In this document: piece by piece, positions 1 through 42,130 of the stretch | How positions within the stretch are numbered: position 1 is the first letter of the stretch | How the letters are laid out: every line of letters starts with the position of its first letter | NCBI GenBank assembly: GCA_030695905.1 | Contig: JAUYOL010000043.1 | Span: forward strand, 64,998 to 128,997 | Length of the DNA: 64,000 nucleotides | DNA from: Candidatus Omnitrophota bacterium | Lineage (GTDB): Bacteria; Omnitrophota; Gorgyraeia; 2-01-FULL-45-10 | Reading direction: 5' to 3' | Position numbers and translations under genes: made by a program | The notes under the pieces: model-generated | Seen by the model: the letters and a program-made list of their open reading frames with translations, nothing else | Told to the model about the DNA's origin: nothing | The model's database searches: none

Positions 1-140
1 GTTTTTTTGGATATATGTTTCTGCATGGTCTCGATATTAAAGGTATTCTCTCCAAAATAGCTGGAAACTTTTTTTAGGACTGCTTGTTTTTTCAAATCCA
101 CGCTCTTTACTTTAAATAATGCTTCCTGTCGAATTGCCAT
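1..140 (-). CDS. glutamine synthetase type III (GlnN-like), N-terminal 46 codons, continues beyond window start
   Basis: Minus-strand ATG at 138-140 preceded by an AGGGAG RBS. Translation MAIRQEALFKVKSVDLKKQAVLKKVSSYFGENTFNIETMQKHISKK follows the N-terminal pattern of Bacteroides-type GSIII (S-DYY--VF---M--YLPK), recalled from memory. Confidence 0.5.
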   Translation of the reverse strand, partial: MAIRQEALFKVKSVDLKKQAVLKKVSSYFGENTFNIETMQKHISKK

Positions 141-179
141 AAAACTCCCTTTCTATGTTTTTATTGCGGGTGTCCAAAT

Positions 180-207
180 ATTATAGCACAGGCCCATCCC
201 AATTCAA
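180..207 (-). promoter_or_regulatory. sigma70-like promoter TTGAAT-N16-TGcTATAAT, about 40 nt upstream of the glnN ATG
   Basis: Minus strand reads ttgaattgggatgggcctgtgctataat, i.e. an extended -10 TGnTATAAT with a perfect hexamer. Confidence 0.45.
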
Positions 208-223
208 TCGTTTTTACTTTTAC

Positions 224-269
224 AAAAAAATAACGCCCATCTTGGCAGCTGCTATTTCCAAAATGAACG
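224..269 (-). terminator. terminator-like hairpin plus U-run, either the glnK1 3' terminator or a glnN leader attenuator
   Basis: Minus strand: CGTTCATTTTGG-(12 nt loop)-CCAAGATGGGCG forms a 12-bp stem with 3 G-U pairs, followed by TTATTTTTTTG. Confidence 0.4.
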
Positions 270-293
270 CCTGTGTTCCACTTTAATATTGTA

Positions 294-307
294 GCACTAC
301 TTTGTGC
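294..307 (-). promoter_or_regulatory. conserved hairpin P1: GCAC-AAAGTA-GTGC, 13 nt downstream of motif copy A
   Basis: 4-bp stem with a hexaloop carrying A at position 1 and G at position 4. The same architecture follows motif copies B and C. Confidence 0.45.
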
Positions 308-320
308 GGCATTACTATAC

Positions 321-351
321 ATACAAGTAAAAACGGAGGCGTTTTGGTAAC
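321..351 (-). promoter_or_regulatory. conserved 31-nt motif copy A (minus strand GTTACCAAAA-N8-TTTTTACTTGTAT), upstream of glnN
   Basis: Plus strand ATACAAGTAAAAA-CGGAGGCG-TTTTGGTAAC. The 13- and 10-nt flanks are identical in all three copies and only the central 8 nt vary. Confidence 0.6.
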
Positions 352-692
352 TACCCTATAGCTTCCTGTCCCCTCTCGCCCGTTCTTATCCTTATGCACT
401 CTTCGAGGTTCAGCACAAATATCTTTCCGTCGCCTATATTGCCCGTCTTAGCGGCCTTACTGATTGCGGCTATAGTGGGTTCCACAAATTTCTCATTTAC
501 TGCGATCTCAAGCCTTACTTTTTTTAGCAGATTTCCAGTTTCTTTTCTGCCACGGTATATTTGAGTTATTCCTTTTTGCCTTCCGCATCCCAGGACGTTG
601 GAAACAGTTTTAAGATGTATTTCGCACTTGTCCAGCTCCTGCAGGACATCTTCAAGTTTATGCGGCTGAATAACAGCGACTACTAACTTCAT
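351..692 (-). CDS. glnK: nitrogen regulatory protein P-II (GlnK, copy 1)
   Basis: 113 aa starting [10 protein letters not shown] with the T-loop RGRKE; lies downstream of amtB. Confidence 0.9.
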
Positions 693-703
693 ATTGTCCC
701 CCT

Positions 704-1939
704 TTAGTCGAGCAGTGTATACGCGCTCTCCTCATGCTGTGTTATATCAAGGCCTATTACCTCTTCCTCATCCTCGACTCTTAGACCCATAACAGCATCA
801 AGAACCTTTAGCAGAACAAACGTAATGGCTATAGAATAAACCATTACTGCCAGAACACCAGTTGATTGTATCATAAATTGATTTTGATTTCCAAAAAATA
901 AGCCATTGTTACCAGCCGGGTTAATTATTTTTTGCGCAAGCAATCCTGTTGCCAATGCTCCAACAGCTCCTCCGACACCATGCACGCCGAAAGCGTCGAG
1001 AGAGTCGTCATATGAAAATTTCAGTTTTATAATAGCTACGGCAGTGTAACACAATAATGCCGCCGCGATGCCTATCAATATGGCAGACATGGGAGAGACA
1101 AATCCCGACGCGGGTGTTATAGTGGCCAGGCCCGCGACAGCGCCTGTGGCGCCGCCCAGAAGGGTCGGCTTGCCGGTTGCTCTCCACTCTATAAACATCC
1201 ACGTAAGCGCTGCTGATGAAGCGGCTGCATTAGTAGCTACAAACGCCCATACCGCTAATCCATTTGCCGCGAGAGAGCTTCCTGCGTTAAAGCCGAACCA
1301 ACCGAACCAGAGCAACCCCGCTCCAATGATAGTTAGCGGCAGATTATGCGGAGGCATAGGTTCCCGTCCATAACCCCGCCTCTTACCTAATATAAGAGCA
1401 CACACTAAAGCTGATACTCCGCTTGATACGTGTACTACTATCCCACCGGCAAAATCCAATACTCCCTTATTCCTTAGCCAACCGCCCTCGCCCCATACCC
1501 AATGACATACGGGATCGTATACAAGAGTGGCCCATAACAAGGTAAAGACAACATAAGTTGAAAATTTCATTCTTTCGGCGAATGCTCCGGCTATCAGGCC
1601 GGGCGTTATGACTGCGAACATCATCTGGTACGCCATGAAAAGAAGGTGTGGTATCGTTGATGAGTAAGTAGGGTTGGGCTCTATTCCAACGCCTTTTAAA
1701 CCCATCCATGCCAGGTTTCCTATAAAATGGCCCTGGTCGGGGCCAAAACTTAAACTGTATCCGCATAACATCCATTGAATACTGATAAGGCACAATACGA
1801 AAAAAGATTGCATCATCGTCGCCAAGACATTTTTTCTTCTTACCAACCCGCCGTAAAATAGTGCCAGTCCGGGTATCGTCATAAGCATAACCAGCGCCGT
1901 AGACATCAAAATCCACGCCGTATCGCCAGAATTTATCAT
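704..1939 (-). CDS. amtB: ammonium transporter Amt (copy 1)
   Basis: 411 aa with multiple TM helices and the Amt signature [10 protein letters not shown] ... DFAGG.VVH.SSG. Confidence 0.9.
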
Positions 1940-1985
1940 AATTTATCCTCTCTTGTATTCAACTGCGTAATCAATTGAGCAAATT

Positions 1986-2035
1986 TAAATAAAAAAATAG
2001 CGCGCACCTTGTTGAGCACAACATTGTGCACGCTA
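1986..2035 (-). terminator. amtB1 leader terminator/attenuator: TAGCGTGCAC ... GTGCGCGCTA plus TTTTTTTATTTAAATTT
   Basis: 10-bp stem with 1 mismatch followed by a U-run, about 45 nt before the RBS and ATG. Its 5' arm overlaps hairpin P1 (2016-2029), so the two structures are mutually exclusive. Confidence 0.5.
2016..2029 (-). promoter_or_regulatory. conserved hairpin P1: GCAC-AATGTT-GTGC, 11 nt downstream of motif copy B
   Basis: Hexaloop with A at position 1 and G at position 4. As DNA it is also a GCAC-N6-GTGC palindrome. Confidence 0.45.
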
Positions 2036-2040
2036 TTGCT

Positions 2041-2071
2041 ATACAAGTAAAAAAGATAGATTTTTGGTAAC
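2041..2071 (-). promoter_or_regulatory. conserved 31-nt motif copy B, upstream of amtB1-glnK1
   Basis: Plus strand ATACAAGTAAAAA-AGATAGAT-TTTTGGTAAC. Confidence 0.6.
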
Positions 2072-2158
2072 CAATTTCGCTTTGCGAAATTGGCCCTGAG
2101 CGAGCCATGAAATCCGACTTTATAGGAGGATTTCAGGCGAGCCGAAGGACCTTTCCAC

Positions 2159-2512
2159 TCATCCTATCGCTACGCCATCTCTTTCACCCGTCCTTATTCT
2201 CACGCACTCCGCAAGATCCAATACGAATATCTTCCCATCACCTATATTGCCTGTTTTTGCGCCCTTTGTTATGGCCAATACCGTAGCTTCAACATATTTT
2301 TCATTTACAGCGATCTCGAGCCTTACCTTTTTCAGAAGGTTGCCCGTCTCCTTTTTGCCTCTATATACTTCGGTTTTACCTTTTTGCCTTCCGCACCCCA
2401 GGACATTGCTTACGGTCTTTAGGTGTACCTCCGCCCTATCCAGTTCCTGCAGGACATCTTCAAGTTTATGTGGTTGAATAATCGCGATTATAAGCTTCAT
2501 ATAAAACGTCAC
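2159..2512 (-). CDS. glnK: nitrogen regulatory protein P-II (GlnK, copy 2)
   Basis: 117 aa, about 80% identical to copy 1. Confidence 0.9.
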
Positions 2513-2518
2513 CTCCTC

Positions 2519-3754
2519 TTAGTCTAACAGCGTATATGCACTCTCTTCATGCTGTGTTATATCAAGGCCTATTACCTCTTCCTCATCCTCGACTCTTAGA
2601 CCCATAACAGCATCAAGGACCTTTAATAATATAAAGGTCACGGCCACCGAATATGCCATCGTGGCTAAAACACCGATTGCCTGGGTAGCGAATTGCGCTG
2701 AATTTCCAAAAAACAACCCATTATTTCCAGCGGCATTTACTATCTTTTGCGCAAATAAACCTGTTGCAAGCGCTCCCAACGTTCCTCCTACACCATGAAC
2801 ACCAAAAGCATCGAGTGAGTCATCGTAGCCGAATTTTAATTTGATAACAGCTACAGCTGTATAGCAAACAAGTCCTACCAGAATCCCTATAAGGATCGAC
2901 GACAGAGGTGTTACGAATCCCGCTGCGGGAGTAATTGCAACAAGTCCCGCTACGGCGCCGGTTGCTCCGCCAAGTATTGTTGGTTTTCCGGTAACTTTCC
3001 ACTCTATGATCATCCATGTCAACGCGGCTGCAGCTGCGGCGGTATTTGTGGCGATAAAAGCCGAGACCGCGAGCTCGTTTGCACCTAAAGCGCTGCCGGC
3101 GTTAAATCCAAACCAGCCAAACCACAAAAGGGCCGCGCCGATCAGACATAAAGGAAGATTGTGCGGCGGCATAGGTTCTTGGCCGTAGCCCCTCCTCTTA
3201 CCCATATATAGGGCGCACACGAGCGCCGATATACCGCTTGATACGTGAACTACCGTGCCCCCCGCGAAATCCAAAGCGCCCATATTTCTTAACCATCCGC
3301 CCGCTCCCCACACCCAGTGGCAGACAGGATCATAAACAAGCGTCGCCCATAATAGGGTAAAGACAACGTAGGTTGAAAACTTCATTCTCTCCGCAAAGGC
3401 GCCTGTTATTAGGCCCGGCGTAATTACCGCGAACATCATCTGATAAATCATGAAAAGAAGATGCGGGATAGTTGAGGCATAATCCGGATTGGGGGCCATT
3501 CCTACACCCTTTAAACCCATCCATGCCAGGCTTCCTATAAAATGGCCCTGATCGGGACCAAAGGACAGACTGTACCCAAAAAGCACCCATTGAATACTGA
3601 TAAGGCACAGTACGAAAAAAGACTGCATTATTGTGGCGAGGACGTTTTTACGCCTTACCAGTCCTCCATAAAACAGCGCAAGGCCCGGGAATGTCATTAA
3701 CATGACAAGCGCAGTCGATATTAAGACCCATGCTGTATCGCCTGAATTAATCAT
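2519..3754 (-). CDS. amtB: ammonium transporter Amt (copy 2)
   Basis: 411 aa, about 85% identical to copy 1. GGAGG RBS upstream of the ATG. Confidence 0.9.
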   Translation of the reverse strand: MINSGDTAWVLISTALVMLMTFPGLALFYGGLVRRKNVLATIMQSFFVLCLISIQWVLFGYSLSFGPDQGHFIGSLAWMGLKGVGMAPNPDYASTIPHLLFMIYQMMFAVITPGLITGAFAERMKFSTYVVFTLLWATLVYDPVCHWVWGAGGWLRNMGALDFAGGTVVHVSSGISALVCALYMGKRRGYGQEPMPPHNLPLCLIGAALLWFGWFGFNAGSALGANELAVSAFIATNTAAAAAALTWMIIEWKVTGKPTILGGATGAVAGLVAITPAAGFVTPLSSILIGILVGLVCYTAVAVIKLKFGYDDSLDAFGVHGVGGTLGALATGLFAQKIVNAAGNNGLFFGNSAQFATQAIGVLATMAYSVAVTFILLKVLDAVMGLRVEDEEEVIGLDITQHEESAYTLLD

Positions 3755-3769
3755 AGCTACCTCCTCTTT

Positions 3770-3949
3770 TTATTTTATATCCAGTTTTTCTTTGACCATT
3801 TCTGCGTATACTTTATTTATGCGGCCAGTTTTTAGCCATCTCTCTAATGTCGACACCTGTATATTTATCTTCACAGAAAGATCATGCAGCGTATAGTCAT
3901 TTTCTTCTTTAATTTGCTGTATTTTTTTAATTAATTCTTTATCAATCAT
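3770..3949 (-). CDS. small 59-aa HTH-like protein, not in the ORF track
   Basis: Translates to MIDKELIKKIQQIKEENDYTLHDLSVKINIQVSTLERWLKTGRINKVYAEMVKEKLDIK. The segment TLHDLSVKINIQVSTLERW looks like a helix-turn-helix. Its stop lies 16 nt before the amtB2 start. Confidence 0.4.
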   Translation of the reverse strand: MIDKELIKKIQQIKEENDYTLHDLSVKINIQVSTLERWLKTGRINKVYAEMVKEKLDIK

Positions 3950-3969
3950 TAATGCAGCTTCCTATATTT

Positions 3970-5226
3970 CTAAAAAGTGATGAGCGCGTCCATGCTGAAT
4001 GTCAGCTGATCCCTCTTGCCGGTGCTAAATACTGATCTGTCAGAGTGGTCATAACGAATTTCCGGCCGAAACAACAAGTTGGATAGTACCTTGTCTTTTG
4101 GGAACGGCTTTATTGCTACGCCTGCGGTTACCTCATAGTAGTTGGCGCCGACAGGAGCGGCGTTAGAAAAACCGCTGGCTGCATCTTTATACCACTCCAG
4201 TCGGGTATTCAGAGTAAAATACTGATTAAGCGCATAGCTAGCATATCCGGCCACACCCCCCCACTGCTTGACCTTATCTTGCGATCCGGGGATCTTTGGA
4301 GTCACAACGTAGTCAGTGCCCAGGCCGAGGCTTAATTTATCATTGATCTTATGTGTTATAACTAAATCCATGGCTGTCCACCAGTTGGCGCTGTCACCCG
4401 TAGGAAGATTGTGTCCGACACCGATCGGGAATTCAGGGCCTTCCGTCATCGTAAAGATGGCGGTAGTCTTGTCGCTGGGTGTAAAGGTTACACGGCCCAA
4501 TAGATCCAAAGCATGGTTGGCATCTCGCAGCGACTGGTTCCATCCCAGCGTTGTGCCAAGGTCAAACGTCCATTGCGGGTTCATTATATAGGTGGCCAGA
4601 ACGCCCGTCTGCGTACCCGGCTCAGCATAGAGAAACTGGTAACTATAAGAATAGAATGCCTTGGCAGGATCACCGAAAGCCCCGTAAATATTGGCGCTGA
4701 ATTGTTCAAATCCGGCCAACTCGATCCACTTACCTACTCTAAGCCGTACAGGTATATAAGGAAGAGCCATATCCGCGTAAGCTTGGAGAAGGTCCCATTG
4801 ATTATGACCCGTTTGGGTATCCCACATGCCATTAGAGTGTATGAAGGCAGCGTCCGCGCCAAAGATGCCCTCCATGCGCCCGCCTATGTCAAACTGCTTC
4901 TTGGTCGGATCTACCGTGCGTTCGACGTTCAAGCTGACCTTATTAAGGGTTATGTCGCTTTTGAAGTTGTTATATCCGATGAAGGTCGGCCCTACGCCTT
5001 CCTGAGGCGCTGTAGCGTCATAAAACCAGCCCGCCTGGGTGTATCCATAGATCTTAATGCCGAGCTTATCTAAAGGTTTGGCTAAACCCACCTTGTCCAT
5101 GCCGGTCATAAGCAGCCCTCTCGACGGCGCAGTTAGAACATCCTCATCGGCATATACCCAGGAATGCGCTTGCGAGTACACAAGGAATGATACCAATATT
5201 AAAGTAATTTTTTTAATCAGTTCCAT
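3970..5226 (-). CDS. outer-membrane beta-barrel (porin-like) protein
   Basis: 418 aa with a signal peptide, alternating amphipathic strands and a C-terminal ...ALITF with terminal Phe. It is the first gene of the transcription unit leading into amtB2-glnK2. Confidence 0.55.
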   Translation of the reverse strand: MELIKKITLILVSFLVYSQAHSWVYADEDVLTAPSRGLLMTGMDKVGLAKPLDKLGIKIYGYTQAGWFYDATAPQEGVGPTFIGYNNFKSDITLNKVSLNVERTVDPTKKQFDIGGRMEGIFGADAAFIHSNGMWDTQTGHNQWDLLQAYADMALPYIPVRLRVGKWIELAGFEQFSANIYGAFGDPAKAFYSYSYQFLYAEPGTQTGVLATYIMNPQWTFDLGTTLGWNQSLRDANHALDLLGRVTFTPSDKTTAIFTMTEGPEFPIGVGHNLPTGDSANWWTAMDLVITHKINDKLSLGLGTDYVVTPKIPGSQDKVKQWGGVAGYASYALNQYFTLNTRLEWYKDAASGFSNAAPVGANYYEVTAGVAIKPFPKDKVLSNLLFRPEIRYDHSDRSVFSTGKRDQLTFSMDALITF

Positions 5227-5249
5227 ATTATCTCCTTTTTATGTACCTC

Positions 5250-5295
5250 AAATAAAAAAAGCGTCTTATTTATCCACATGGATCAATAAGACGCC
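5250..5295 (-). terminator. porin leader terminator-like hairpin T2: GGCGTCTTATT-(14 nt)-AATAAGACGC plus TTTTTTTATTT
   Basis: 10-bp perfect stem followed by a U-run, ending about 20 nt before the AAAGGAG RBS. Confidence 0.55.
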
Positions 5296-5304
5296 AATGT
5301 CCTA

Positions 5305-5337
5305 AAATTTAAATAAAAAAGCGCTCTTTTCGAACGC
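5305..5337 (-). terminator. porin leader terminator-like hairpin T1: GCGTTC-GAAAA-GAGCGC plus TTTTTTATTTAAATTTT
   Basis: The 3' flank GCGCTTTTTTATTTAAATTT is nearly identical to the amtB1 leader flank GCGCTATTTTTTTATTTAAATTT. Confidence 0.45.
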
Positions 5338-5349
5338 CTTAGTTTATCA

Positions 5350-5363
5350 ACACAACTATGTGT
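5350..5363 (-). promoter_or_regulatory. conserved hairpin P1: ACAC-ATAGTT-GTGT, 13 nt downstream of motif copy C
   Basis: Same stem-hexaloop architecture, with A at loop position 1 and G at position 4. Confidence 0.45.
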
Positions 5364-5376
5364 CTTAATGCTACTC

Positions 5377-5407
5377 ATACAAGTAAAAAGAGCTTAGTTT
5401 TGGTAAC
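5377..5407 (-). promoter_or_regulatory. conserved 31-nt motif copy C, upstream of the porin-HTH-amtB2-glnK2 unit
   Basis: Plus strand ATACAAGTAAAAA-GAGCTTAG-TTTTGGTAAC. It overlaps the last 4 codons and stop of the sigma factor gene. Confidence 0.6.
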
Positions 5408-5933
5408 TCCTTTTTATCTCGCATCTCAGTTTCTCGCATTTTGCCCTGATCTTTTTCCTTAATTTTATCACGGCGACGTGTGAAATGCCAAGCTTTTCAC
5501 CCATTTCACGCACTGTCAGGCCGTCGGTGCTCATTTTTATAATAGCGATTTCCCTGTCATTAAGGTCATTTTTATAGGCTTCATCATATAATATTTTGTC
5601 CTCAACCTGTTCTTCACAGGACGATTCGTTTAAAGCTAATACTTCTTCGAGCATAGTTCCGTCTTCATCTATGGGGCTTTCGATGCTCTGGATCTTTACT
5701 TTATCCATGGATGTCCTTATGTAATTCTTAAGATGAAAGTAGCAGCCCTGCAATATATAGCTGTCCGTTTTATCATCAAGGATGCCCTTGCCAGACTTGA
5801 TCCATAGATGGATAACCGCCTCCTGGTATAGGTCATCATCGTTAAAGAACGTAAAATGACCGTTGAGCCGATGACTTATCCTTCGGATCGTAGGCGTAAG
5901 TCTGGTTATTAATGTTTCGAAATTATCTTTCAT
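5394..5933 (-). CDS. ECF-type (sigma-24-like) RNA polymerase sigma factor
   Basis: 179 aa. A region-2-like segment DDLYQEAVIHLW...YFHLKNYIRT and a region-4 HTH LTVREMGEKLGISHVAVIKLRKKIRAK. Confidence 0.55.
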   Translation of the reverse strand: MKDNFETLITRLTPTIRRISHRLNGHFTFFNDDDLYQEAVIHLWIKSGKGILDDKTDSYILQGCYFHLKNYIRTSMDKVKIQSIESPIDEDGTMLEEVLALNESSCEEQVEDKILYDEAYKNDLNDREIAIIKMSTDGLTVREMGEKLGISHVAVIKLRKKIRAKCEKLRCEIKRSYQN

Positions 5934-5942
5934 GTTAATAAA

Positions 5943-5981
5943 GAAGCCCTTCGATGCATATCAATGCATACAAAGGGCTTC
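5943..5981 (-). terminator. rho-independent terminator downstream of nadE
   Basis: Minus strand GAAGCCCTT-(21 nt, internally palindromic ATGCAT..ATGCAT)-AAGGGCTTC followed by TTTATT. Confidence 0.55.
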
Positions 5982-6025
5982 TTTGCTCCTTAATATTTTT
6001 ATCTCTTCAGCGAGATAAATTCCTT

Positions 6026-7705
6026 TTAATATTCTTTATACTTGTTCGTTATCGGCATTCTTCTATCTTTGCCGAATGACCTTGGCGTTATTCTTATGCC
6101 CGGCGGTGACTGCCTCCTCTTGTATTCGCTCTTATCGACCATAGCAACAACTCTCAAGACATCGTCTTTACTGCATCCCGAGGATATGATCTTCTTCATA
6201 TCGCGGTCATCTTCAACATACGCTTTGAGTATAGGATCTAATTTGCTGTAAACCGGCAATGTATCGCTGTCTTTCTGATCGGGCTTGAGCTCCGCGGTGG
6301 GCTCTTTTGTTAAGACAGAATCCGGTATTATATGAGAAATAGAATTTCTATATTTGCAAAGCTTATAGACAAGGGTTTTTGGCACATCTTTTATTACCGC
6401 GAAGCCTCCTGCCATGTCTCCATACAGAGTGGCATAGCCGGTGCTCATTTCCGATTTATTTCCCGTAGTAAGGACGAGCCACCCAAATTTATTGGACAGG
6501 GCCATCAATATATTGCCTCTTATGCGCGCCTGCAGATTTTCCTCCGCTATGTTCTTTTCTGATCCAGCGAATAGCGATGATAAAGTAATAAGGTATAATT
6601 TAAATATCTGTTCTATGGAAATAGCCTCATATCTTATGCCTAAGTTACCAGCGACCTCTCTCGCGTCGTTTGCTGATTCTTGTGAAGAATATCGAGACGG
6701 CATGAATATGCCCGTTACGTTATCCTTGCCAAGGGCATCTACTGCCAACGCCGCTACTATGGCGGAGTCTACGCCACCGCTTAATCCAATGGCAACTTTT
6801 TTAAAACCATTCTTGTTTACATAATCCTTTAGTCCCAGCAGGAGCGCTTTATATGCCTCTTCCGCATTTTCTACCATGACAGCAACTTTATTTTTTAATA
6901 CAGAAGGTTTCTTATCTATCTTTTTCTTTATGGTCAATATTTTACTATCAGTTCTTCTGTGCGCAGCGTTTAAAGCAATATCCGCGAAAAGCAGCTCTTC
7001 TTCAAAAGCCTTGGCTCTCGCGATTATCCTGCCCTTATCGTTTGCCACCATACTGCGGCCGTCAAATACAAGTTCATCCTGTCCCCCTACCATATTTACG
7101 TAGGATATAAATATCTTGTTGCTTTTTGCCGCCTTCTGGATAACATTTTCTCTTTCCTTTATCTTTCCGATATGATAAGGAGAAGAGTTTATTGCGATCA
7201 TTACTTGAGCGCCGGCCAAAGCACACATTTTTACGGGCCCGGACTTATGCCATATGTCTTCACATATACTGAGTCCAAATACTATATTATCCATCTTAAA
7301 GATAAAAGGAGATTTACCCTGTTTAAAATAACGGACTTCGTCGAATACCCCATAATTGGGCAATAGCATCTTGTGGTATATACCGAGAATTCTTCCCTTA
7401 TATATTACCGCGGCGGCATTGTAAACATTGGCGCCCTTACTATCCGCGAAGCCGATTATAGCTGCTACATCCCCGACAGACTCGGCTATCTCCTTGAGTA
7501 TGTGCACATTTCGTTCGATAAAATGCGATTTAAAAAGCAGGTCCTCTGGCGGGTATCCGGTTATAGCCAACTCAGGGAAAGAGACTATGTCAGCTCCCGC
7601 ATTTTGAGCCTTATTTATACAGTCCATTATTTTCTCGGCGTTTAGATACAGGTCTCCTACTGTGCAATTAACCTGCGCTAAAGCCAATCGTATTGTTTTC
7701 TTCAT
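6026..7705 (-). CDS. nadE: glutamine-dependent NAD+ synthetase
   Basis: 559 aa. N-terminal CN-hydrolase/nitrilase domain plus a C-terminal NAD synthase domain with the PP-loop GLSGGVDSA. Confidence 0.85.
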   Translation of the reverse strand: MKKTIRLALAQVNCTVGDLYLNAEKIMDCINKAQNAGADIVSFPELAITGYPPEDLLFKSHFIERNVHILKEIAESVGDVAAIIGFADSKGANVYNAAAVIYKGRILGIYHKMLLPNYGVFDEVRYFKQGKSPFIFKMDNIVFGLSICEDIWHKSGPVKMCALAGAQVMIAINSSPYHIGKIKERENVIQKAAKSNKIFISYVNMVGGQDELVFDGRSMVANDKGRIIARAKAFEEELLFADIALNAAHRRTDSKILTIKKKIDKKPSVLKNKVAVMVENAEEAYKALLLGLKDYVNKNGFKKVAIGLSGGVDSAIVAALAVDALGKDNVTGIFMPSRYSSQESANDAREVAGNLGIRYEAISIEQIFKLYLITLSSLFAGSEKNIAEENLQARIRGNILMALSNKFGWLVLTTGNKSEMSTGYATLYGDMAGGFAVIKDVPKTLVYKLCKYRNSISHIIPDSVLTKEPTAELKPDQKDSDTLPVYSKLDPILKAYVEDDRDMKKIISSGCSKDDVLRVVAMVDKSEYKRRQSPPGIRITPRSFGKDRRMPITNKYKEY

Positions 7706-7725
7706 ATTTTAATCTCTTTATCCCC

Positions 7726-7751
7726 ACAAAATAAAAAATGCCTTCCGGCAT
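7726..7751 (-). terminator. nadE leader hairpin ATGCC-GGAA-GGCAT plus TTTTTTATTTTG (attenuator-like)
   Basis: Short 5-bp stem with a U-run, located between the promoter and the RBS. Confidence 0.35.
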
Positions 7752-7789
7752 ACTTTGCCAAAAGACATTCTTTGTCTACTACAATAAGT

Positions 7790-7817
7790 ATTATATCACA
7801 CTTCGGTAGTTTGTCAA
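7790..7817 (-). promoter_or_regulatory. near-consensus sigma70 promoter TTGACA-N16-TGaTATAAT for nadE
   Basis: Minus strand ttgacaaactaccgaagtgtgatataat. Confidence 0.55.
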
Positions 7818-7850
7818 TCAAGTAATTCCTGCTTTTTAATTTCTAACCCG

Positions 7851-8567
7851 TTATTTCTTTTTCATCGAGTCTATCAGGATGATAGCGTCCGCTATATCGC
7901 GCATGGAGCGCCTTGTATCCATACTCTGTCTTTGTATCTTCTTAAACGCTTCCTCTTCGGAAAGGCCCTGCTCTCTCATAAGGATACCCTTGGCCTTTTC
8001 AACGCTCTTCCTGGTTTCTAATTCTTCCTGTATTACCTTAGTCTTTACCATAAGTTCCGCATTTTCAATAACTATCGCAGCCTGGTTTGCCACAGAGAAC
8101 AGTATGTCTATCTCTTCCTTCGTGAACTTGTGCGGTTTTGAAGTATAGTTATTTAATACGCCTATTACCCTGCCCTTAACTGAAAGAGGAACGGATAGTA
8201 GAGATCTTAAGCCTTCCTTCTTTGCTATATCCTTATATTTATATTCCGTCTCTTTGGATATGTCGTATATTGCCTGCGGCTTATTTTCTAAAGCGGCCTT
8301 TCCGGCTATCCCTTCTCCTATATGCAGCGGCGGTTTTTTGTTGTATGTTTCGCTCATAGATTGAGTCGCTTTAAGCACAAGCGTTTTTGTCTTATCATCC
8401 ACCAGGCTTAAAGAGCATATCTTGGAATTCATGATCTCCGCGGTAACCGTTACGATAAGTTTTAGAATATCTTCCAGGTAGAGGTTTGAGGTAATAGTTC
8501 TGCTGACCTTGGAGATTGCCTCTAAGCGTTTCGCGTGAGATACTGCCCTGCTGTCCTTTTTTGCCAT
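7851..8567 (-). CDS. GAF-ANTAR regulatory protein (RNA-binding antiterminator family)
   Basis: 238 aa. N-terminal GAF-like region and a C-terminal ANTAR-like segment EKAKGILMREQGLSEEEAFKKIQRQSMDTRRSMRDIADAII. Confidence 0.6.
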   Translation of the reverse strand: MAKKDSRAVSHAKRLEAISKVSRTITSNLYLEDILKLIVTVTAEIMNSKICSLSLVDDKTKTLVLKATQSMSETYNKKPPLHIGEGIAGKAALENKPQAIYDISKETEYKYKDIAKKEGLRSLLSVPLSVKGRVIGVLNNYTSKPHKFTKEEIDILFSVANQAAIVIENAELMVKTKVIQEELETRKSVEKAKGILMREQGLSEEEAFKKIQRQSMDTRRSMRDIADAIILIDSMKKK

Positions 8568-8571
8568 TTGG

Positions 8572-9534
8572 TTATCTCTTTCCTTCCGATTTAGGGGCTA
8601 TGTTCGTCCCGAGAAATTTCGTGTCAGAGTCTTTGGGCATTTCTTGTATCCAGCCATTATTTAACCCCAACTTGTGCGCTTCGTCAACTTTTATTTTGTA
8701 CTCCTCCTCCAGTATACCGCAAGACAGCTCTTTAAAATCACATGCTTTATAGGTCGGATAGTATTGGCTCATTATACTCAAGTAGGCATCTTTAGAGATG
8801 TTTTCCTTGATAAATTTTAAACTTTCGGTAGTTCCAGAAATATTGTGCGGCAATACCAGAAGCCTTATTATGAGGCCTTTTATCGCAATATCATCGTCGT
8901 CCAAAATAACGTTTCCTGCCTGTCTATACATCTCCTTCACCGCTGTCCTATCGCGTTCAACGTAATCGGGAGCATCGGAATACAGCTTGGCCATCCTGTT
9001 ATCCGAATAGCGCATATCAGGCAAATATATGTCGATAATGCCATCAAGTAGACGTATAGTGTCTGTAAGGTCATAACCGCTTGTATTATATACGATGGGT
9101 ATCGAAAGGCCGTTATTGACGGCTATTTCCAACGCCATCAATATCTGAGGCACATAATGCGTAGGATTGACCAGGTTTATATTATGACAGCCCGCTTGCT
9201 GCAGTTCTAACATTATCGAGGCAAGTTTCTCTATCGATATTTCGTCGCCTCCATCAAGCTGGCTGAATATGTAGTTCTGGCAGTATGCGCATTTCATATT
9301 ACAGCGCGAGAAGAATATCGTTCCGGAGCCTTTAGAGCCGGATAGCGCGGGTTCCTCGCCGTGGTGGGCCATGTAACTGTATATAACGGGATTGTATGGC
9401 GCCCTGCAATAACCGAGTTTGCCCGCGAACCTATTTACTTTGCACCGGCGCGGACATATTGCGCATTTACTTAAAGAGTCTTTCAGCAAGTCAAGCGCAA
9501 TACGCACTTTCTTTAATTTATCATCTTTATTCAT
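8572..9534 (-). CDS. radical SAM enzyme, PFL-activase-like (AmmeMemoRadiSam-type)
   Basis: 320 aa. CNMKCAYCQN is a CxxxCxxC motif, and an N-terminal Cys cluster CAICPRRC...C is also present. Confidence 0.6.
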   Translation of the reverse strand: MNKDDKLKKVRIALDLLKDSLSKCAICPRRCKVNRFAGKLGYCRAPYNPVIYSYMAHHGEEPALSGSKGSGTIFFSRCNMKCAYCQNYIFSQLDGGDEISIEKLASIMLELQQAGCHNINLVNPTHYVPQILMALEIAVNNGLSIPIVYNTSGYDLTDTIRLLDGIIDIYLPDMRYSDNRMAKLYSDAPDYVERDRTAVKEMYRQAGNVILDDDDIAIKGLIIRLLVLPHNISGTTESLKFIKENISKDAYLSIMSQYYPTYKACDFKELSCGILEEEYKIKVDEAHKLGLNNGWIQEMPKDSDTKFLGTNIAPKSEGKR

Positions 9535-9548
9535 ACGAGAAAAAGGCC

Positions 9549-10262
9549 TTAAGAGGGATCCGCTCTGTGTGTTATATTCTTATCGATGAAATTTATTATG
9601 GCTTTTTCTTTTTCAGGAGTAAGGTGCGTGAAAGCTATCCCCGTGCCGGGATAGAAATGCGGTTGAAGTTCTTTATCCGCCAACCATATGACCCTGCCCG
9701 CGGTATCGGTAAATTTTATCTCACCGGGAAGGTCAATCTCCATTTCTATTTGGCTGTTGATGGGGAATGTGTATTTGGAGAATATATACATTCCCGCGGC
9801 GCTCAAATTGAGGATTTCTCCTTCGAACACTTTGGGGCGCTTTTGATTTCCAACGAGCCAATACTTCACTTTTAGGCTTATATCGAGCCGTTTGAACCTG
9901 CGCCTCAAAGGCATGGCCAGAACCGCAGCGTCATAAAAACTTTTTATAGCGGACTCCTCGTCAGGATATACTTCGAAAGTATTTTCCAGCTTTACTATTT
10001 TAAAGAGTTCTATTACCTGAGGCGATACGTTAAGGAATTTAATCTTACCTTTATGGTTAAGTACATTTTTGTAGGCTATGGCGAGGACTGAAAGACCGCT
10101 GTAGTCCACCATGTTGACATTTTCGAAGTTTAAGATGAAGTTAAGCTTGCCGGAGCCCAGGAAGTATCCTATCATCTCGATGATATCAGAAGAGTTGATA
10201 TCAATATTGCCTTCGGCATCGATAATAGTTATATTTCCGCTTTCCCTGAATCTTATCGGCAT
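9549..10262 (-). CDS. STAS (anti-sigma antagonist-like) - PilZ fusion protein
   Basis: 237 aa. N-terminal SpoIIAA-like STAS segment, then PilZ motifs RRRFKR ... NLSAAG. Confidence 0.6.
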   Translation of the reverse strand: MPIRFRESGNITIIDAEGNIDINSSDIIEMIGYFLGSGKLNFILNFENVNMVDYSGLSVLAIAYKNVLNHKGKIKFLNVSPQVIELFKIVKLENTFEVYPDEESAIKSFYDAAVLAMPLRRRFKRLDISLKVKYWLVGNQKRPKVFEGEILNLSAAGMYIFSKYTFPINSQIEMEIDLPGEIKFTDTAGRVIWLADKELQPHFYPGTGIAFTHLTPEKEKAIINFIDKNITHRADPS

Positions 10263-13930: not shown

Positions 13931-14308
13931 TTAGCTCTCCTTCTGTAGGTTGTATATCAAATCACATAAGAATTTTAAAAATGTATTCTTATTGTCTTCT
14001 TCTATTTCGATAAATTCCACACCGATGTCGTAAGGCGCGTTATCTTCCAGGCTTAATCTCTTTTTCCATACTACCTTACCCTTGGCGTGTACCGGATTAT
14101 GAGTGTCATATATTTCAAGCTTGAGCTCAATAGTGCCCGATACCTTAATATCTTTCGCGTTAGATTCTAATCTCAAGCCGTCAGCGGATATATCTTTGGT
14201 TATAGCGCTGTATATGCTGCCGGTTTCAGGGACTGTATACGTCACCGGTATAGGCGATTTAAGCCTAATATACTTTCTTCTCTCGATAAGCCTGTCTTTT
14301 ATCTTCAT
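13931..14308 (-). CDS. PilZ domain protein
   Basis: Motifs RRKYIR and DISADG. Confidence 0.65.
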   Translation of the reverse strand: MKIKDRLIERRKYIRLKSPIPVTYTVPETGSIYSAITKDISADGLRLESNAKDIKVSGTIELKLEIYDTHNPVHAKGKVVWKKRLSLEDNAPYDIGVEFIEIEEDNKNTFLKFLCDLIYNLQKES

Positions 14309-42033: not shown

Positions 42034-42107
42034 CAAAGCAGAATGGAGCGAGCGATGGGAATCGAACCCACGTATCAAGCTTGGGAAGCTCGTATTCTAC
42101 CATTGAA
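42034..42107 (-). tRNA. tRNA-Gly(CCC)
   Basis: Minus strand GCGAGCG-TA-ATTC-AATGGTA-GAAT-A-CGAGC-TTCCCAA-GCTTG-ATACG-TGGGT-TCGATTC-CCAT-CGCTCGC-T-CCA. Acceptor stem 7 bp, anticodon stem 5 bp, T-loop TTCGATT. Confidence 0.85.
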
Positions 42108-42130
42108 TTACGCTCGCGCCGATCGCTCAT

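Follow-up and report, generated by a model that had tools for sequence, protein, structure and literature searches.

Which factors control the genes for ammonium uptake and glutamine synthesis at the start of a 64 kb stretch of DNA from a Candidatus Omnitrophota bacterium (contig JAUYOL010000043.1; the whole stretch is called the window here)? The question is raised by two genes embedded in this nitrogen island, one for a small sigma-like protein (5394..5933) and one for a GAF-ANTAR protein (7851..8567), both on the minus strand. The original prediction had named them as candidate regulators, and its coordinates agree exactly with the open reading frames (ORFs). Our analysis points to a two-tier nitrogen-assimilation switch in which the GAF-ANTAR protein would gate both the sigma factor and all sigma-dependent operons, a reading to which we assign a probability of roughly 0.7. 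Two kinds of target that had been left without a regulator can be paired with these proteins: a recurrent DNA motif with the sigma factor, and the hairpins that follow the motif with the ANTAR protein, both as candidate assignments. The minus strand carries all genes of the first 16 kb, and those of the island are as follows, in the direction of transcription.

8572..9534, minus strand: radical-SAM protein, 4 nucleotides (nt) from the GAF-ANTAR start
7851..8567, minus strand: GAF-ANTAR regulator, 238 amino acids (aa), Pfam GAF_2 3.5e-22 and ANTAR 8.7e-22; proposed RNA-binding antiterminator and nitrogen-status sensor
6026..7705, minus strand: nadE, glutamine-dependent NAD synthetase, Pfam NAD_synthase 1.4e-76 and CN_hydrolase 2.9e-36; first gene of the nadE-sigma unit
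5394..5933, minus strand: sigma-70-family factor resembling the extracytoplasmic function (ECF) type, 179 aa, sigma2 and sigma4, NCBIfam TIGR02937
3970..5226, minus strand: BBP2-family outer-membrane porin, Pfam BBP2 1.4e-51; first gene after promoter copy C
2519..3754 and 2159..2512, minus strand: amtB1 and glnK1, Pfam Ammonium_transp 8.6e-137 and P-II 1.3e-26
704..1939 and 351..692, minus strand: amtB2 and glnK2, Pfam Ammonium_transp 3.6e-132 and P-II 2.1e-27
1..140, minus strand: 5' end of a type III glutamine synthetase (GS-III) gene that runs off the window; its N-terminal translation resembles the start of GSIII_N-positive homologues

The DNA motif consists of two core blocks, GTTACCA-N16-ACTTGTA. 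In its extended form, GTTACCAAAA-N8-TTTTTACTTGTAT, in which N8 corresponds to N16 between the core blocks, it occurs in three mismatch-free copies in the 64 kb, all on the minus strand and all in the nitrogen island; 100 shuffles of the sequence yielded no extended-motif match at up to three mismatches.

5407..5378 (extended 5407..5377), minus strand: copy C, proposed promoter of porin-amtB-glnK, with a -35-like GTTACCA at 5407..5401 and a -10-like ACTTGTA at 5384..5378
2071..2042 (extended 2071..2041), minus strand: copy A, exact, proposed promoter of amtB2-glnK2
351..322 (extended 351..321), minus strand: copy B, exact, proposed promoter of the type III glutamine synthetase gene

The sigma gene had been predicted to end inside copy C, and it does: the first eleven bases of this copy are read as (A)GT TAC CAA AAC TAA, the S-Y-Q-N-stop end of the sigma ORF, whose stop codon lies at 5396..5394. 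The first G of copy B is likewise the last base of the glnK2 stop codon TAG.

Conservation of the motif was assessed in 80 species-level loci that carry the sigma gene (35 from Omnitrophota, 6 labelled Planctomycetia or Planctomycetales, 36 from Syntrophorhabdales or 'delta-proteobacterial' metagenome-assembled genomes (MAGs), and 3 others). A search for GTTACCA-N15-17-ACTTGTA with one mismatch per block found 113 copies on the gene strand against 5 on the opposite strand, the latter all degenerate. Essentially every copy has a 16-nt spacer between the core blocks, ACTTGTA varies as little as GTTACCA, and the consensus reads (G/A)GTTACCA(A/G)AA-N7-TTTTTTACTTGTA, of which high-GC genomes retain the two core blocks only. 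Both the geometry and the gene-strand orientation hold across about 200 related loci. The first gene downstream in the sigma loci is amtB (25 cases), a gene for an outer-membrane protein (about 42; BBP2, Gcw_chp and two unassigned families), GS-III (15), P-II (5) or a small Fis-type helix-turn-helix (HTH) protein (5), with nifH, an amino-acid permease and GATase once each. A motif-first scan of metagenome contigs returned the same regulon, including 19 further cases of the motif before GS-III; the gene directly upstream was sigma in 38, glnK in 26 and GS-III in 7, and about a dozen chance matches all came without a leader.

These properties indicate that GTTACCA-N16-ACTTGTA behaves as a promoter. 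Because it comprises two asymmetric blocks at a fixed distance and in strict orientation, it is best read as the -35 and -10 elements of a sigma-70-family factor, and it differs from the TTGACA-17-TATAAT promoters of the same loci, as used for nadE. The motif often begins within the stop codon of the upstream gene and is then the sole sequence between that stop and the leader, leaving no room for a separate promoter. The same features bear on a first alternative, in which the motif would be bound by a different regulator that acts together with the housekeeping sigma (the conserved HTH-like protein of 59 aa, or the Fis-type HTH or Crp-family proteins of relatives), the sigma-like protein controlling something else. 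Small HTH-like genes are conserved inside the islands, a Crp-family gene adjoins the GAF-GAF-ANTAR gene in locus L012, and the evidence that links sigma and motif is indirect; however, the geometry is that of a -35/-10 pair and not of a dimeric operator, copies that begin in the upstream stop codon leave no space for another promoter, and the small HTH genes are absent from many motif-bearing loci.

Several established nitrogen-control sites were considered for the same region and rejected. The sigma-54 consensus TGGCAC-N5-TTGCW gave 17 matches at up to two mismatches against 22 expected, inside genes and none in the leaders, and sigma-54 (-24/-12) promoters of amtB, glnK and glutamine synthetase were set aside as chance-level matches. 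Operator readings tried by eye (an NtcA-type palindrome GTA-N8-TAC, a TnrA/GlnR type and the actinomycete GlnR box GTnAC-N6-GaAAC; PMC3087709) were discarded because the two blocks lack symmetry and any second half-site would have to lie in the spacer, which is not conserved.

Two observations outside the window concern the reach of the motif. In one Omnitrophota MAG (L065:1042-2042) nifH comes after the motif and an ANTAR leader, so nitrogenase can belong to the regulon. A gene for a small Fis-type HTH (HTH_8) protein stands downstream of GS-III in relatives (L001:19797-20084, L068:15761-16144 and 11 metagenome loci, e.g., L108, L116 and L126); it has its own GTTACCA-N16-ACTTGTA and ANTAR-type leader, and the window ends before this position.

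Sequence profiles and the predicted fold confirm the 179-aa protein as a divergent sigma-70-family factor that is ECF-like in architecture. The NCBIfam model TIGR02937 ('sigma70-ECF', a superfamily-level model) matches residues 4-168 with 53.2 bits against a cut-off of 42.9. An AlphaFold 2 model built with 31 homologues shows two helical bundles (residues 2-79 and 126-178) with a linker of low confidence between them, which is the sigma-70 group 4 build: sigma2 and sigma4 only, with no regions 1.1 or 3. In a Foldseek search of the PDB with this model, the leading matches were all sigma factors (SigH, SigB, ECF SigH/L/E/W and AlgU) with probabilities of 0.95-1.0. Aligned by hhalign with Escherichia coli RpoE, the family profile is colinear from region 2.1 to region 4.2, and the motifs DDLxQEAxxHLW and SYILQGCYFHLKNYIR fall on RpoE regions 2.1-2.4. 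The assignment is founded on the NCBIfam match, the fold and the RpoE alignment, not on Pfam, where the protein gave sub-threshold region-4 matches only (Sigma70_ECF at 19.5 bits against a cut-off of 21.1, and GerE) and Sigma70_r2 was not reported at E<=0.01.

The Pfam result leads to a second alternative: the protein might be no RNA-polymerase subunit but an activator of the LuxR/GerE type, sigma-like in its N-terminal domain, which would bind GTTACCA and bring the housekeeping holoenzyme to a weak -10. Weak LuxR-type matches in a PDB sequence profile search fit this idea, as do the below-cut-off Pfam matches to GerE and a region-4-type helix-turn-helix alone. We consider it quite unlikely, given that the full-length TIGR02937 match takes in region 2, that DDLxQEAxxHLW and SYILQGCYFHLKNYIR align to RpoE regions 2.1-2.4, that the top structural matches are all sigma factors, and that the invariance of ACTTGTA implies sequence-specific reading of the -10 as well.

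For a sigma-70-family factor of this build, the designation 'ECF' in the original prediction holds for the two-domain architecture and no further. Typical ECF promoters have AAC in the -35 and CGT in the -10; here the -35 reads GTTACC and the -10 ACTTGTA. Typical ECF genes are autoregulated; here the motif lies downstream of the sigma gene and a sigma-70-type promoter lies upstream, with a motif upstream in L072 only. No anti-sigma gene, a frequent though not universal partner of ECF genes, was found: there is no ORF between the nadE, sigma and porin genes, and in relatives the sigma gene is surrounded by nitrogen genes. A 90%-identity database contains at least 878 members of the family, which is sharply bounded (123 clusters at E<=1e-30 among 1.84 billion representatives) and was found in 193 species in a scan of one genome per species.

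We then related the sigma gene to the motif. In 59 of 79 loci a motif copy is found no more than 400 nt from the sigma stop codon, and in 31 it overlaps the stop or directly adjoins it. The overlap occurs in two registers, ...GGT/AGT TAC CAA AAC TAA and ...ATT TAG TTACCA, and the sigma proteins keep their C-terminal Y-Q-N only in loci where ORF and DNA motif overlap, which indicates that the constraint acts on the DNA. Where the sigma4 recognition helix reads G-I-S-H-V/A (the His is residue 152 in the window protein), 93 of 101 motif-like sites, defined by an exact ACTTGTA and up to two mismatches in the -35, carry GTTACCA and none carries GTTAACA. Twelve distant family members were also examined, of which nine were informative, all with a residue other than His at position 152; for the remaining three (P0371 in L205, P0329 in L208 and P0386 in L211) the contigs were too short or contained no motif within reach. 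Eight of the nine non-His lineages have GTTAACA-N16-ACTTGTA (helix S-F-V in P0378, P0296, P0347 and P0369; S-F-P in P0384; S-G-V in P0364; S-N-V in P0375; S-P-A in P0314), and the ninth has GGTAACA-N16-ACTTGTA (S-G-K in P0327). Non-His loci that reach a neighbouring gene show a nitrogen context (GOGAT, nadE, amtB, P-II, or glutamine synthetase I or III), and a GAF-ANTAR gene was found in L203 and L214 of this survey.

The co-variation of sigma4 residue 152 with base 5 of the -35, the strongest indication of which factor reads the motif, ties the sigma to the -35 element, as supportive evidence and not as proof. A candidate cognate bipartite promoter with a fixed spacer is present and linked to the sigma, with one or two co-variation events underlying the link. 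That motif and sigma gene occur together in two phyla, and that the -35 base changes with the recognition helix, also makes control by a separate DNA-binding protein with the housekeeping sigma unlikely, and favours the sigma as the factor that reads the motif.

The second regulator matches its predicted description well. Both domains of the GAF-ANTAR protein exceed their Pfam cut-offs (ANTAR 77.1 bits against 27.3; GAF_2 79.5 against 28.6), and the ORF order on the minus strand places it upstream of nadE in the same orientation, as had been stated. Its closest PDB relatives are Rv1626, EutV and NasR for the ANTAR domain, and the PtsP/EI-Ntr GAF structures 3trc and 3ci6 and the NifA-like Nlh1 for the GAF domain. 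ANTAR proteins recognise dual hexaloop hairpins with A at loop position 1 (A1) and G at position 4 (G4), the second hairpin (P2) overlapping a terminator (PMC3369931; PMC12591593). Each of the three sigma-type promoters of the window is followed by a leader with such elements (hairpin loops in square brackets).

5254..5363, minus strand: porin-amtB-glnK leader; first hairpin (P1) ACAC[ATAGTT]GTGT at 5363..5350, P2 AAC[TAAGGC]GTT at 5344..5333 overlapping terminator 1 at 5338..5315; second unit with hairpin GAC[ATTGGC]GTC at 5301..5290 overlapping terminator 2 at 5295..5254
1991..2037, minus strand: amtB2-glnK2 leader; GCAC[AATGTT]GTGC at 2029..2016 competes with the 5' arm of the terminator AATAGCGTGCAC...GTGCGCGCTATT, which is followed by a T-run
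224..307, minus strand: glutamine synthetase leader; P1 GCAC[AAAGTA]GTGC at 307..294, P2 AAC[ACAGGC]GTT at 277..266 overlapping the terminator GGCGTTCATTTTGG...CCAAGATGGGCGTT with its T-run (271..224)

In relatives the common leader begins 10-40 bases past the motif and consists of P1 ACAC[AnnGnn]GTGT, a gap of 8-10 nt, P2 (A/G)AC[AnnGGC]GTT, a terminator and a T-run; in nearly every leader the terminator 5' arm GGCGTTC re-uses the 3' half of P2. A covariance model, R1 (P1 ACAC[AnnGnn]GTGT plus P2 AAC[AnnGGC]GTT), gave 80 matches in the 80 loci, 80/80 on the gene strand. Loop 1 has A1 in 65/78 and G4 in 77/77, and loop 2 has A1 in 63/79 and G4 in 77/79; with A1 in about 80% and G4 in about 98% of loops, the hairpins fit the ANTAR rule. 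The copy C leader matches R1 at 5365..5329 with 39.8 bits (E 2.5e-8). The glutamine synthetase leader matches in part (303..262), as does the amtB2-glnK2 leader, a shortened variant with no clear second hairpin in its minimum free energy (MFE) fold. No Rfam family matched the leaders at gathering thresholds, nor at relaxed thresholds over 1..9000. Taken together, the leaders after each sigma-type promoter are best interpreted as ANTAR-type attenuators, with those of copies A and B and of nadE as variants.

As a separate observation, a single ANTAR-like hairpin, AGAC[nnAGGC]GTCT or GGAC[TnAGGC]GTCC, precedes a second terminator in the nadE and porin leaders of many relatives.

A third alternative concerns these leaders: the hairpins and terminators might be constitutive or answer to another factor, and the GAF-ANTAR protein might be linked to them by neighbourhood alone or act on translation. 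Weak hairpin covariation and the single-hairpin units speak for it, as does the structure after P2 in L203 and L205, which overlaps a ribosome-binding site and not a T-run, and ANTAR proteins acting on translation have been reported in actinobacteria (bioRxiv 10.1101/660928). We regard it as very unlikely, since the published sequence and structure rules hold at about 80 sites (PMC3369931), the 3' half of P2 is shared with the terminator stem in nearly all cases, and GAF-ANTAR, whose gene keeps its place in most loci, is the best-conserved of the island's proteins. Attenuation by GAF-ANTAR is the reading we retain.

The sigma gene itself appears to be under the same kind of control, through three elements of the nadE-sigma unit.

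7790..7817, minus strand: consensus sigma-70-type promoter TTGACA-16-TGnTATAAT, 12/12 match with extended -10
7733..7777, minus strand: nadE leader attenuator; hairpin AGAC[AAAGAAT]GTCT at 7777..7763, terminator stem GTCTTTTGGC/GCCGGAAGGC at 7766..7740, T-run at 7739..7733
5937..6019, minus strand: nadE-sigma spacer attenuator; P1 TTTATCTC[GCTGAA]GAGATAAA at 6019..5998, P2 GAGC[AAAGAA]GCCC at 5988..5975

The promoter is matched by cTTGACA...TAnnnT upstream of nadE in 38 of 41 related loci. By terminator scan and MFE fold, the nadE leader hairpin shares its 3' arm with the terminator stem. Among related nadE leaders, a GAC[RnnGnn]GTC hairpin is present in 31/41 and a T-run in 39/41, and 30/41 have a second unit, GGAC[nnnGGC]GTCC plus a terminator. 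The nadE-sigma spacer has an MFE fold of -37.3 kcal/mol, and its P2 overlaps the terminator AAAGAAGCCCTTTG...CGAAGGGCTTCTTT (5984..5940), which is followed by ATT and ends a few bases from the sigma ATG. This terminator hairpin (5984..5937) bears out the placing of the sigma gene after a nadE terminator, and the arrangement is common to about 14 Omnitrophota loci. Four loci provide the sigma gene with a sigma-70 promoter and an ANTAR leader of its own, and the principle is repeated in the distant loci L203 and L205. Sigma synthesis therefore looks ANTAR-dependent wherever it can be examined. For L203 and L205, the ribosome-binding site of the sigma gene lies within the hairpin that follows P2, with no T-run there. 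ANTAR binding may also control translation of the sigma in the window, judging from the lack of a Shine-Dalgarno sequence and a terminator arm near the ATG (5931..5945).

These elements suggest the following mechanism. The GAF-ANTAR gene would be co-transcribed with the radical-SAM gene 4 nt upstream of it. In tier 1, the housekeeping promoter at 7817..7790 would drive nadE and then the sigma gene, and the transcript would pass two ANTAR-type attenuators, that of the nadE leader and that of the spacer ahead of the sigma gene, such that the sigma is made only while GAF-ANTAR is in its RNA-binding state. In tier 2, the sigma would bind core RNA polymerase and direct it to the three GTTACCA-N16-ACTTGTA promoters (porin-amtB-glnK, amtB-glnK and type III glutamine synthetase), with initiation expected just downstream of ACTTGTA. 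Each of these transcripts would need GAF-ANTAR again, binding the leader RNA at the leader terminator. The resulting logic would be a coherent feed-forward (AND) loop that turns on slowly, responds to a sustained signal only, and shuts down immediately once the antiterminator loses its activity. GlnK would regulate AmtB after translation, in line with the established role of its family. The GAF domain presumably reads nitrogen status; PtsP/EI-Ntr and NifA-like GAF domains respond to glutamine and 2-oxoglutarate, and by analogy 2-oxoglutarate and/or glutamine is the suggested signal here. A sigma-70-like second promoter, TTGAAT-16-TGcTATAAT at 180..207 on the minus strand (promoter scan, 10/12 match with TG), lies between the copy B attenuator and the glutamine synthetase start, and suggests basal glutamine synthetase expression outside the circuit.

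Several observations weigh against this reading. The non-His proteins form approximately one clade in a neighbour-joining tree, implying one or two paired switches and not nine, so the co-variation cannot be counted as many events. For the sigma protein, the Pfam region-2 and ECF models stay below their cut-offs and the Foldseek TM-scores are low (0.3-0.37); the latter is attributable to the arbitrary relative placement of the two domains in the model. In contrast to the neighbouring genes, the sigma ORF lacks a visible Shine-Dalgarno sequence. Base-pair covariation in the leaders is weak, with near-invariant stems: 97.6% of cells are paired, and 7 double changes were seen in 547 cells, at 3 pairs. 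Finally, the copy A leader has one clear hairpin and the second terminator of copy C has one hairpin, whereas published ANTAR sites are dual.

The arrangement is conserved well beyond the window. By tblastn with the window proteins, the order GAF-ANTAR - nadE - sigma - (porin) - amtB - glnK was found in most of the 80 loci, and a nitrogen context also surrounds distant members of the sigma family. Neither the domain searches nor the synteny gave a result that overturns the original prediction. GAF-ANTAR is 80-94% identical across Omnitrophota; in Syntrophorhabdales-like loci the antiterminator is a GAF-GAF-ANTAR protein, its gene lying beside a Crp-family gene in L012. In most relatives nadE adjoins the sigma gene, often with overlapping stop and start codons, which implies an operon. 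The six loci from MAGs labelled Planctomycetia or Planctomycetales are L001, L009, L021, L025, L028 and L068; at least in L001, and partly in L009, the island proteins are 75-93% identical to those of the Omnitrophota window, and these bin labels are probably wrong.

Further genes of the window were recorded alongside the island. A 59-aa ORF between the porin gene and amtB1 (3770..3949, minus strand; MIDKELIKKIQQIKEENDYTLHDLSVKINIQVSTLERWLKTGRINKVYAEMVKEKLDIK) encodes a product with a weak Cro/C1-type HTH signal (HTH_26, E=0.018). At least 30 related loci encode the protein at 56-78% identity, and where the position was looked at (window and L001) its ORF adjoins the amtB1-type gene on the upstream side; the protein may be a third regulator of the island. 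A STAS-PilZ gene (9549..10262, minus strand) lies upstream of the radical-SAM gene, and these two genes are conserved upstream of GAF-ANTAR in Omnitrophota loci only, their counterparts in Syntrophorhabdales-like loci being a Crp-family gene and the GAF-GAF-ANTAR gene. Beyond 10.3 kb the genes are unrelated to nitrogen (M23 peptidase, TauE, YqeY, deformylase, PanD, PilZ and a hydrolase). An ordinary stand-alone PilZ-domain protein is encoded at 13931..14308 (minus strand), and an ordinary tRNA gene lies at 42047..42117 (minus strand, 67.7 bits).

How far the circuit departs from known systems depends on the layer considered. Ramesh et al. (2012) predicted that in many bacteria ANTAR elements precede P-II, amt, glutamine synthetase and nitrogenase genes, and no GAF-ANTAR protein had been characterised at that time (PMC3369931). 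The claim that the combination is unusual accordingly stands for the sigma layer and the combined circuit, and not for ANTAR elements on P-II, amt and glutamine synthetase genes. With EutV, NasR, AmiR and the regulons of PMC3369931, the island shares the ANTAR output domain, dual A1/G4 hexaloop hairpins, the overlap of P2 with the terminator, and several leaders per nitrogen regulon. It differs in that its sensor is a GAF domain and not a receiver, NIT or pseudo-receiver domain, that its leaders stand behind dedicated alternative-sigma promoters, that synthesis of the sigma is itself ANTAR-gated, and that many leaders add a second terminator with a single hairpin to what published sites contain.

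In Geobacter sulfurreducens, the GnfL/GnfM - GnfK/GnfR cascade combines sigma-54 and an enhancer-binding protein with the ANTAR response regulator GnfR, which acts on glnK, amtB and nif leaders (PMC2995071). There too, glnK and amtB need both specialised initiation and an ANTAR antiterminator, and the second layer is transcriptionally controlled by the first (PMC2995071). However, the Geobacter cascade uses sigma-54 and a phosphorylated response regulator, its recognition sequence is a different one (CAGGCAANGGCGCC), and its initiation layer switches on the antiterminator, whereas here the antiterminator appears to switch on the sigma. GnfLM/GnfR is the nearest analogue, although its sigma family and sensor type are different and its hierarchy is reversed.

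On the sigma side, HrpL is an ECF (group 4) sigma controlled by transcription, without an anti-sigma, that reads the hrp box GGAACC-N15/16-CCACNNA. The two types share a small sigma2-sigma4 build, a two-block promoter whose -35 is G-rich (xxACC) and whose spacer measures about 16 nt, and no co-encoded anti-sigma, and sigma activity here is apparently set by the amount of sigma made. In contrast to HrpL-type factors, region 2 is too divergent for Pfam, the -10 is ACTTGTA without CGT, the regulon concerns nitrogen, and the promoter lies downstream of the sigma gene, which precludes autoregulation. NtrBC/sigma-54 and GlnR/TnrA systems have the same physiological targets, amtB-glnK and glutamine synthetase, but the leaders here have no -24/-12 element and the island has no gene for an enhancer-binding or MerR/OmpR-type regulator. 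Our literature search, incomplete in coverage and compatible with an earlier description, found nothing on this sigma family, its promoter or a nitrogen circuit of sigma plus ANTAR; Leptospira matches were set aside, as they concerned sigma-54. ANTAR control of nitrogen genes is thus the known part, predicted in 2012, and the sigma, its promoter and its nesting with attenuation are apparently new.

Nitrogen control is textbook regulation, yet few designs are known, and these come from cultivated phyla. Here a full candidate circuit (sensor, sigma, promoter consensus, RNA targets and regulon) can be read from sequence in about 200 loci of barely cultured lineages. It would provide a dedicated small sigma for nitrogen assimilation, a new motif with which metagenome regulons can be annotated, and a natural case of initiation and attenuation control nested as a feed-forward AND gate. 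The pairing of His152 with a C-to-A change in the -35 offers a ready specificity swap and a route to orthogonal synthetic promoters. With a first concrete regulon for a GAF-ANTAR protein, what such proteins sense becomes testable with 2-oxoglutarate or glutamine. A broader proposal, whose chances we judge to be evenly balanced, is that an undescribed sigma-70 subgroup with the consensus GTTACCA-N16-ACTTGTA (GTTAACA in a sister clade), set in a GAF-ANTAR feed-forward loop, serves Omnitrophota, Syntrophorhabdales-like Desulfobacterota and further anaerobes as their chief control of nitrogen assimilation, replacing NtrBC/sigma-54, GlnR or NtcA. If this is true, it would give the large uncharacterised class of GAF-ANTAR proteins its first defined regulon and a testable signal.

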